This document shows, one piece after another, positions 3,001 through 6,000 of a stretch of 8,048 nucleotides of DNA; the stretch's first letter is position 1; every line of letters begins with the position of its first letter. The position numbers are program-made. The stretch covers positions 1-8,048 of the forward strand of contig JANLWX010000050.1 of NCBI GenBank assembly GCA_031364845.1. Direction: 5' to 3'. The DNA comes from Candidatus Eiseniibacteriota bacterium. Its GTDB lineage: Bacteria; Eisenbacteria; RBG-16-71-46.

Positions 3001-6000
3001 AGCGACTCGAGCATGGAGAGGCCGGTCCCGAACTCGAGGACATCGCCTTTCGAGCTGCATGACGTCCTGGCCGAGCACGCGAGCCCGTTTGGTGCTGGCT
3101 GCGCTCGAACGCCTGGGGTGGACGACGATCGGGCTCGCACCGGACGTTACAACGATCGGGCTGGCCCGATTTTGTTTTCGCTTTTCATGAAGGTGAAGAG
3201 ATCGGGCCCAGGATGCTTGCTCGAATCGCGAAGCGCACGGGGCTGAGCCCACAAGATCTCTGAACGTGAAGAGCTACCGCCGCGCGAACACCAGCCTCTG
3301 ATCGCTCGCACCCAGTGGCGACTTCACGCGCCGTATCATCTTGAGCGTGTCGCGGTTGGCGGACAGTTCCCAGCGATCGTTGAGCGTGACGTCGAAGATC
3401 ATCATCTTGGTCTTCGAGTCGATCACCAGTACCCGCCCCTCCCACCGCGCGACGGACTGAACGTCACGTCCGTCGACGGTGCTGTGCGTGACCTCGCCAT
3501 TCGTCCGATAGCGGTAGACGGTCGTGTCGAGTGAGGTCGGATTCGAGAGGTAGAGCACGTGCGATACCTCGGGCTCGCGATGCGTGATCGTGTCGGTACG
3601 CGCGAGCGGCTTACCGCCGGGGAGTGTGCCGAACTCCGACTGCTTCATGTCCAGAGTCCAGCGTCCGGTGAAGCTCGGATGTGCGGCGTCTTCGTGCGGC
3701 CGCGGGACTTCGCTCGAGTGGGTGAGCCCGCGTCCGATGCTGCCCGGCTTCGCTGCCGGCGCCTTCGCGCGCGCTCCCGTCGTCGCATTTGCGAGCAACA
3801 ACCCCGCGAGCATTAGTGCCGCAGGCAGGCCGTGCAGCGTCACGCAGGCCTCGCGCCGGCGGCCGCACCTGCGGGCTCGAGCGCCGAGACGATCTCCTTC
3901 GCGAGCACGGTGAGCGATGCGTCGCGCGCGCCCATCACCAGCACGACGTCTCCGGTGCGCGCTTCGCCGACGATCGCGCGCACGAGTTCGTCGCGCGATG
4001 GCGCGTATGCGGCCCCCGCGCCGCGCGCGGCGATCTCGGCGACGATGGCGGCGGACGAGAAGTCGCGCACCGCGGTGCCACCCGCGTAGTAGATCTCGAG
4101 CAGCCACAGCCGGTCCTCGGGACGCAGCGAAGTCGCGAACATCTCCACGAAGTCGGGCCGCAGGAACCGTGTCGGTCCATAGCCGTGCGGCTGAAACACC
4201 GCGAGCACTCGCGCCGCGCGGCGCTGTGCGGTCGTGATCGCGGCCGTGAGCTTCGCGGGGTTGTGCGCGAAGTCGTCGATCACTTCGATGCCGCGCGCGA
4301 CCCCGAGCGTCTGGAAGCGCCGGGTCACACCCTGATAGCGTGCGAGCGGGGCGACCATCTCGCCCAGCGGGACACCAGCGGCGCGGCATACGGCGATCGC
4401 GGCGGTCGCATTCTCGACGTTGTGCTGACCGGGCACCGGCAGCGTGAACGCGACACCGTCGACTTCGAAGCGGCTCGCCGCGGCTTCGAGCGTCACGTCG
4501 GTCGCCACGACGTCGGCGTTCCGGCCGAAGCCGAATACGAGCGTGTGTTCGGGCCCGCCCTCGGCGACCCGATGGACCGCAGAAAGCGCCGCGAGATTCT
4601 TCGCCTCGCCCACCACGAGCGTGTCGCGCGTCTGCCGGCAGAAGATCTCGAACATGCGGGCGACCGCATCCATCTCTTTGTGGTCCTTCTGCAGATTGAG
4701 CACCACGCCGAAGGCCGGGTGATAGCGCACGACCGAGCCGTCGCTCTCGTCGGCCTCGACCACCAGCAGATCGCCGCCGCCATACCACGCGTTGCCGCAC
4801 AGGCCGTCGTTATGGAGGCTCACGAGATCGCCGCCGGTGATCACGGACGGCTTGCGTCCCGCGCCGCGCAGGATCTCGAACACCATCGCGACCACGCTCG
4901 ATTTGCCGCTGGTGCCGGTCACGGCGATCGCGCGCATCGAATGAACGAAATGCGCGAGCAGCTCGGAGCGATGGACGATCGGCACGCCGTGCCGGCGAGC
5001 GGCCATGACATCGGGAACGGTTTCCTCGACCGCGGTCGAAACCACGAGTGCGGCGCAATCGGGACCGACTCCGCTTCCGTCCTGCGGATGGATCGTGATG
5101 CCGAGTTGTTCGAGCGGCGCACGGGCATCGGCGCGCTCGCCGTGATCGAACGCGCGGTCGCTGCCACTCGCCGTGCCGCCGAGCATCGCCTGGAACTGGG
5201 CGAGCGCGCTCATGCCGCTGCCGCCGAGGCCGGCATAGTGGAAGCGGCCGGGGCCGCGCGGATCGGGAATCGCCGCGGGTCGCTCGATGACGGCCACGGC
5301 ATCGCCCTCGCGCACGTGCTCGAACAACTCGATCACGTCGGCATTGCTCATGCGAATGCAGCCGTGTGAGCTCGGGCGGCCGAGCCGGTGTTCGTGATTG
5401 GTTCCGTGGATGTAGATGTAGCGCTCGAGCGTGTCGCAGCCGGCGCCGCGATTGACGCCGTCCTCCATCCCATCGAGCGTCAGCACGCGCGTGAGGATCA
5501 GGTCCTCGTCGATCGAATCGCCGCGCCACAGGCGGCCGGTCGCCTCGCGGCTTTCGAACACCATGCCCGCCGGCTGCCCGGCGCCGATCTTCCGATGGAT
5601 GCGCAGCCACCCGGGTGGTGTGCGCAACGAGGCTTCGATGCCCCCGATCCCGGCTTCGGCGGTCGAGATGGGATATTCTGCCGCCACCACGCCGCCCTCG
5701 AGCCGCACCAGGCGCTGGCGATCGACATCGACCACGAGACAGCGTGCGAGTGCTTCGGCCTCGGGCGCCATCGAGCGCGCGAGCGCATCGCGCATCAGCA
5801 CGGCGAGCCGCGCGGCAATAATGAGCGCGTGTTCCTCGAGTGCGCCTTTGCGAGTGTCCCGTTCGTTCATGGCTTCACTGTGCCACAAGGAGGCGGATGT
5901 GCCCACCCCGCATGAAGGCGCTCCGGCGCCGTCGATCGAGTCGCAGCAAGCCGGGCCGGCCGGCGCGGACGCGGTGTCGCTGCGCGAGATCACGGCTGAA

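Follow-up and report, generated by a model that had tools for sequence, protein, structure and literature searches.

A gene of Candidatus Eiseniibacteriota joins an ElsL-type YkuD domain to a third-lineage MurC/Mpl-type ligase and probably encodes a wall-peptide salvage enzyme

The L,D-carboxypeptidase ElsL (LdtK) of A. baumannii, represented by the NCBIfam model NF040925, depends on its essential Cys138, and the accessible sections of its description show with ElsL and Mpl that tetrapeptide precursors are toxic in this species (Dai et al. 2021, PMC8649774). Mpl (TIGR01081; P. arcticus structure 3hn7) uses L-Ala slowly, and its overexpression rescues murC(ts); its Ser-Asn-Gly are candidate peptide-binding residues, and the incoming-alanine residues of H. 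influenzae MurC are Tyr346, His348, His376, Arg377 and Arg380 (PMC3060825, available text). Bacteria without Mpl and LdcA homologues are said, in the available parts of two reports, to degrade recycled wall peptides to amino acids (PMC13046382, PMC9790009), and 'Mpl homologs', not named individually in the accessible text, are mentioned in Caulobacteraceae (PMC11980594). In some lineages the first MurC type has given way to a second, described as Frankia MurC2 or plant-type MurC (PMC7231273, available part). The ligase family studied here resembles it in this respect, but Frankia MurC2 adjoins murG and has no recycling link in that part of the description. Our literature search, which ran mostly outside subscription papers, found neither the present fusion nor its ligase lineage described. 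The orthologue list of Dai et al., in the part available, excluded sequences longer than 200 aa (PMC8649774), so fusions could not show up in it. The fusion is real and conserved, is apparently undescribed, and probably acts like LdcA/ElsL plus Mpl.

We analysed a window of 8,048 nucleotides (contig JANLWX010000050.1) from a Candidatus Eiseniibacteriota genome that is 97% complete. The fused gene, its parts and the gene that follows it are:

3840..5870, minus strand: fused gene, ElsL-type YkuD domain plus third-lineage MurC/Mpl-type ligase (open ORF, 676 aa; domain searches)
5751..5870, minus strand: N-terminal helix (residues 1-40), broken by Arg and unlike a typical signal peptide (model helix 3-30; hydrophobicity script)
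5286..5738, minus strand: YkuD domain of ElsL type, residues 45-195 (NF040925 match; Cys171 aligned with ElsL Cys138)
5247..5285, minus strand: short linker, residues 196-208, with conserved PDP (alignment of 76 fused rows)
3918..5246, minus strand: three-domain Mur ligase, residues 209-651, UDP/ATP/Mg residues intact (Pfam, NCBIfam, Foldseek, alignment)
4896..4916, minus strand: P-loop GTSGKSS (alignment)
4260..4277, minus strand: DDFAHN motif (alignment)
4173..4193, minus strand: QPHGYGP, at the positions of H. influenzae MurC Arg377/Arg380 (alignment; PMC3060825)
3921..3932, minus strand: GARD, with the family-specific invariant Arg649 (alignment; PMC3060825)
3274..3843, minus strand: 189-aa gene of no known family, its start overlapping the fusion stop in GTGA (domain search)

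The preliminary description of this DNA had reported an ElsL-type YkuD domain fused to a complete Mur ligase. We confirmed this, since the 676-aa open reading frame carried all four Pfam domains (YkuD at residues 45-194 and three Mur-ligase domains at 210-649). The NCBIfam scores were reproduced exactly, at 137.4 bits for LD_carbox_ElsL, 287.4 bits for murC and 111.7 bits for mpl, each below its cut-off (270 for NF040925, 335.1 for TIGR01082 and 388.7 for TIGR01081). An AlphaFold model from an alignment of 76 rows had a mean pLDDT of 91.8 and a pTM of 0.80, and the linker residues P202, D203 and P204 were each at least 90% conserved in the 76 fused rows. When 8000 candidates were scored with the fused protein, 4444 matched, and the best 120 of these, which we inspected, all carried the YkuD and the three Mur domains, as had been stated before. 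An artefactual fusion was ruled out, because a single frame crossed the junction in 39 of the best 80 (of 240) GTDB loci and in at least 44 of the 59 genomes of the host's family, counted among the matches listed. Mobile carriage was likewise rejected, as no close relative was found among 72,556 plasmids, where the best ligase match was about 36% identical. A promoter scan gave nothing exceeding chance.

The YkuD half was identical to A. baumannii ElsL at 61 of 135 residues (45%), and Cys171, which lies in the previously noted SHGCIR motif, aligned with the catalytic Cys138. His155, Ser168, Gly170, Cys171 and Arg173 were invariant in 76 rows. The NF040925 cut-off was passed neither by the fusion nor by any of 50 relatives tested; the A. 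baumannii ElsL protein, run as a control, scored 328 bits. Other L,D-transpeptidase models gave at most 30 bits on this half, which ruled out a periplasmic L,D-transpeptidase; the host has two other YkuD genes. In the N-terminal helix, the longest uncharged run was 7 residues, and the best 11-residue window was fairly hydrophobic (2.49 vs a median of 0.82 for 120 proteins), both values coming from the hydrophobicity script only. Joining to an enzyme that uses ATP and UDP-MurNAc implies that the fusion is probably cytoplasmic. We infer that the YkuD half is a predicted tetrapeptide L,D-carboxypeptidase of the ElsL type. It resembles ElsL in the domain itself and in replacing LdcA in the genome, and may also do so in lacking an export signal, none having been seen by the script, but differs in its score (137 bits vs the cut-off of 270), in being joined to a ligase and in having an activity that is so far predicted. 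LdcA (Peptidase S66) would carry out the reaction predicted for the YkuD half too, and in Alphaproteobacteria it is paired with this ligase lineage by adjacency or by fusion, but the YkuD half has an unrelated fold and LdcA was not found in the host genome.

We then compared the ligase half in an alignment of 49 family rows, 8 rows from Elusimicrobiota that have no MurC-type enzyme besides the family ligase (sole copies), 34 MurC rows and 15 Mpl rows. Residues G214/G217/D238, K323, E372, E375, H397, R518, D533 and H536 were conserved as in MurC and Mpl. P-loop position 321 was Ser in 94% of the 49 family rows and His in all of the 34 MurC and 15 Mpl rows, and the fusion carried DDFAHN where MurC has DDYxHH and Mpl has DDFAHH. 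Both histidines of the MurC alanine pocket were kept (His536, His562), with Tyr346 changed to Phe534, Arg377 to Gly563 and Arg380 to Pro566. MurC Arg377 was present in 82% of MurC rows, and Arg380 in 34/34 MurC rows but 0/57 family rows. Residue 649 was Arg in 57/57 family rows and Gly in 93% or more of the MurC and Mpl rows, and lies in the loop that bears the Ser-Asn-Gly of Mpl; Arg649, Lys540 and Asn537 are invariant residues of the family's own. Gly563 and Pro566 may open space past the first alanine, and Arg649 may anchor a carboxylate. The Mpl motifs GI(C/G)GTFM, (S/T)AFFDKRSK, EPRSNT and SNG were absent from the fusion sequence, and AFFDKRSK was present in 14 of the 15 Mpl controls. A Foldseek search with the AlphaFold model returned MurC as the best solved structures and Mpl 3hn7 at rank 22. 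Measured against the features that define the two enzymes, the ligase belongs to neither Mpl nor MurC.

In detail, the family ligase is like Mpl in being a second MurC-fold ligase besides a canonical MurC, in its tie to a carboxypeptidase, in the Phe-Ala-His of the DDFAH loop and in lacking the MurC Arg pair (PMC3060825, available text), but differs by its score (112 bits vs 389), by the missing GTFM, AFFDKRSK, EPRSNT and SNG and by its own branch. With MurC (TIGR01082; H. influenzae 1p3d) it shares the best sequence and fold match, the UDP/ATP/Mg residues and, in one Elusimicrobiota lineage, the role of MurC stand-in; the fusion differs in its score (287 bits vs 335), in the changed Tyr346, Arg377 and Arg380, in the extra Arg649 and Lys540 and in its place outside the dcw cluster. 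HNP, QPHGxxP and GARD provide a sequence signature for the family. The His to Ser change in the P-loop and the mostly unrelated housekeeping neighbours would also fit a ligase that works outside peptidoglycan synthesis, or an inactive scaffold or sensor for the carboxypeptidase. However, every catalytic residue for ATP, Mg or UDP is invariant, and sole-copy genomes need the ligase for their wall, so that we regard such a role as highly improbable.

With a profile built from the family, the tested members reached at least 422 bits, MurC did not exceed 332 and Mpl did not exceed 173, and this separation made the membership calls clean. The family formed one branch with a support of 99 both in a FastTree tree (95 rows) and in an IQ-TREE mixture-model tree (41 rows, leaving out two actinobacterial plasmid MurC and rooted with two MurD rows on a long branch), showing that the ligase belongs to a third lineage, apart from MurC and Mpl. 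The unconstrained trees placed it with MurC (support of 82 and 60), and the constrained tree of the family with Mpl was 5.6 log units higher and not rejected (p-AU 0.64). The trees cannot tell whether the family is sister to MurC or to Mpl. The idea that the ligase is closer to MurC than to Mpl held by profile (287 vs 112 bits) and by fold, and the trees did not establish the proposed 'second origin' of Mpl activity.

To describe the genomic context of the ligase, we used the best 80 of the 240 GTDB loci, and screened 50 of their genomes together with that of the host for carboxypeptidase partners. Thirty-nine loci were fused, 4 had an in-gene frame break and 11 were tandem two-gene forms; in the rest, the YkuD gene lay 5-6 kb off in 2, a contig end cut 2, and the ligase stood alone in 22. 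The split YkuD forms of the 11 tandem loci meet the single-domain filter of 105-200 aa used by Dai et al., whereas the 676-aa fusion does not. An ElsL-type domain was found in 33 of the 51 carrier genomes. S66 was present in 1/33 carriers of the ElsL type vs 10/18 carriers without it (one of the 10 in fragments), and outside Elusimicrobiota all carriers without the ElsL type had S66 (9/9). The 8 of 51 carriers with neither were all Elusimicrobiota; a canonical MurC was present, and neither carboxypeptidase was found, in four carriers (G032, G037, G038 and G045). Nine further two-copy Elusimicrobiota loci showed no carboxypeptidase gene adjoining the ligase. In a tree of 42 of the 51 carriers, some three lineages, all placed within the ElsL carriers, had the S66 form, but independent swaps between ElsL and S66 on well-supported branches amounted to only 2 pairs, too few for a test (sign test p 0.5). 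In all the partner counts given here and below, related genomes are not independent of one another, and Fisher tests of the association, which ignore kinship, were given no weight.

Among 301 sampled Alphaproteobacteria, 37 carried the family ligase. S66 was present in 34/36 unfused carriers vs 42/264 non-carriers, and it adjoined the ligase in 28 of the 36 (one by a C-terminal domain only). Ligase-S66 fusions formed three protein clusters, P0220, P0272 (85% identical) and P0273 (45%, the most distant), in which S66 sits at the opposite end of the ligase from YkuD; the four S66 proteins tested against the LdcA equivalog model all scored below its cut-off. A canonical MurC was present in 41 of the 50 surveyed carriers and in 33 of the 36 alphaproteobacterial ones. 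Mpl over cut-off was found in 0/101 carriers (51 surveyed, 36 Alphaproteobacteria and 14 Elusimicrobiota), which says little because Mpl is rare in these lineages and was likewise not found in the other Alphaproteobacteria checked. Altogether, the ligase almost always has an L,D-carboxypeptidase as its partner, either of the ElsL type or of the unrelated LdcA/S66 kind, and this pairing supports an Mpl-like peptide-salvage role, which we state as a prediction.

We consider it likely that the fusion is a cytoplasmic two-step salvage enzyme, which trims tetrapeptide and then ligates tripeptide to UDP-MurNAc; both activities, the substrate, the step order and the location are deduced. The YkuD domain (His155/Cys171) would cut the terminal D-Ala off the wall tetrapeptide, free or on UDP-MurNAc, the ligase half would join the tripeptide to UDP-MurNAc with ATP, and UDP-MurNAc-tripeptide would re-enter synthesis at MurF, which would complete the precursor. 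The ligase would be Mpl-like in action, with relaxed specificity and probably some residual L-Ala activity. Its tie to a carboxypeptidase would follow from the toxicity of tetrapeptide reuse by Mpl. The fusion would secure co-inheritance and co-expression, and channelling would not be required; in many loci the two halves are encoded by distinct genes.

Salvage might also involve another piece or order, with the ligase taking the dipeptide L-Ala-D-Glu, or taking tetrapeptide first with YkuD later proofreading UDP-MurNAc-tetrapeptide. LdcA acts on UDP-MurNAc-tetrapeptide too, and NlpC/P60 (SH3_16) neighbours in two loci (L055 and L060) could yield dipeptide. In the available text, P. arcticus Mpl also accepts, though slowly, Ala, dipeptide, tetrapeptide and pentapeptide (PMC3060825), and the substrate of the ElsL assay was disaccharide tetrapeptide, not free peptide (PMC8649774). 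Nevertheless, the commonest partners make tripeptide and the NlpC/P60 context is limited to 2/80 loci, which leaves this version of salvage quite improbable. If the ligase attaches tripeptide as in the two-step enzyme, direct peptide reuse would reach about 1 in 8 of the sampled Alphaproteobacteria (37/301), Geothrix, Eisenbacteria, Krumholzibacteria and others, in which the family gene is filed as a second murC, and the fusion would be a one-protein model for the coordination of trimming and ligation.

The Elusimicrobiota bear on what the ligase can do. A canonical MurC was found in 81 of 121 genomes, and 39, one of them complete, had a sub-cut-off match only. The 37 of these 39 sole-copy ligases that were fetched were all family members, and the other two were known members already. 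The complete E. posterum genome carried MurA, MurD, MurE, MurF, FolC and the family ligase, with neither S66 nor ElsL found; a hidden MurC was ruled out, the remaining Mur-domain genes being MurD, MurE, MurF and FolC. In relatives of E. posterum, the ligase gene closes a dapA-lysC-asd-dapB run. Because it is the sole MurC-type enzyme in genomes that keep MurD and MurE, some family member must make the MurD substrate. A family member can thus evidently do the job of MurC, which the gene content implies for the Elusimicrobiota sole copies and not for the fused protein. Mpl, which rescues murC(ts) when overexpressed and uses L-Ala slowly, sets a precedent for such crossover. These sole copies would represent a natural essential MurC without the usual alanine-binding arginines. 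Since they also lack Arg377 and Arg380, arginine loss alone leaves L-Ala possible as a substrate, and we did not accept the loss as proof of a peptide substrate.

This brings forward a divergent MurC isozyme that adds one amino acid (L-Ala, or Gly/Ser), in which Arg649 replaces the lost arginines and the carboxypeptidase is a partner through common regulation of wall turnover and not through a common substrate. Such an isozyme would agree with the sole-copy role in 39/121 Elusimicrobiota genomes with MurD/MurE retained, with the greater nearness to MurC by profile and by Foldseek, and with the retained His562 and His536. It leaves unexplained why the ligase repeatedly adjoins, or is fused to, carboxypeptidases of two unrelated kinds. 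Furthermore, the sole-copy pocket read QPH[AS][FY][TA]S in 35 of the 37 fetched sequences, while all 8 second copies read kept QPHG[FY]xP; incomplete assemblies may account for the two sole copies that have the usual motif. The sole copies (L075-L080, L216-L250) form one lineage, and its rewritten pocket suggests a change of job. We therefore regard the isozyme as unlikely for the fused protein and retain the two-step salvage enzyme. On a broader scale, the family, found in at least nine phyla (record taxa), may have gained peptide ligation independently of Mpl, been fused separately to ElsL-type and LdcA-type carboxypeptidases that avoid toxic tetrapeptide reuse, and taken over the MurC step with a rewritten pocket in one Elusimicrobiota lineage; this scenario is tentative and, taken as a whole, rather doubtful.

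The rest of the host recycling pathway largely matched what had been listed for it. The canonical MurC scored 518 bits on another contig, where the N-termini of its neighbours were read by eye as murG, ftsQ, ftsA and ftsZ, in agreement with a second MurC in the dcw cluster. Peptidase_S66 was not found in the host genome and no Mpl exceeded the cut-off there, as claimed. AnmK and MurQ, both over cut-off, lie in one run (MurQ, sugar ABC transporter, AnmK, SpoIID-domain gene), and there are two GH3 genes. Three Amidase_3 genes, whose N-termini look exported by eye, are present in the host, as are six peptide-binding proteins, and a single MFS protein is weakly AmpG-like (63 bits vs the cut-off of 350); Amidase_2 (AmpD) was not found and no cytoplasmic amidase was recognisable. 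The likeliest supply of free peptide is periplasmic release followed by Opp-type import. The peptide-salvage module of the preliminary description was backed in part, with strong comparative support from the pairing and fusion with two unrelated carboxypeptidases and from the lost MurC arginines, whereas the sole MurC-type role in Elusimicrobiota and the host without a recognisable cytoplasmic amidase count against it.

Homologues of the 189-aa gene stood directly after the ligase in 4 of the 80 loci (L011, L013, L015 and L022), and the gene is probably co-transcribed with the fusion. Between ispG and this gene, in a stretch of slightly lower GC, lies a HicB/HicA-like pair (2856-3263, plus strand): a 68-aa HicB-type antitoxin-like ORF, assigned by eye with no family over cut-off, and a HicA-like toxin gene, apparently split over two frames (PF07927, 25.8 bits vs the cut-off of 27). 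A GNAT acetyltransferase gene (5899-6414, plus strand) diverges from the fusion, the predicted starts being less than 30 bases apart, and had no homologue in the 80 loci. The gene at 6503-7885 (minus strand) encodes an M43 (pappalysin-type) metalloprotease that bears a sorting-like domain at its C-terminus; in 8 Eisenbacteria loci its homologue is the immediate upstream neighbour of the ligase gene, probably by plain synteny.

Other loci showed further arrangements. At L010 (1866-3917) and 21 other, mostly alphaproteobacterial loci (cluster 6), the fusion and a Scaffold+YkuD L,D-transpeptidase gene meet tail to tail. On the conjugative 128-kb Streptomyces plasmid pZL1 (NC_023316.1; L205), a murC-annotated gene amid hypothetical genes had motifs outside the MurC pattern used. 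In two Elusimicrobiota loci (L055, 4021-9215; L060, 3187-8328), a C39+SH3+NlpC/P60 gene, the ligase gene and an Amidase_3 gene form one run, a possible second salvage layout.
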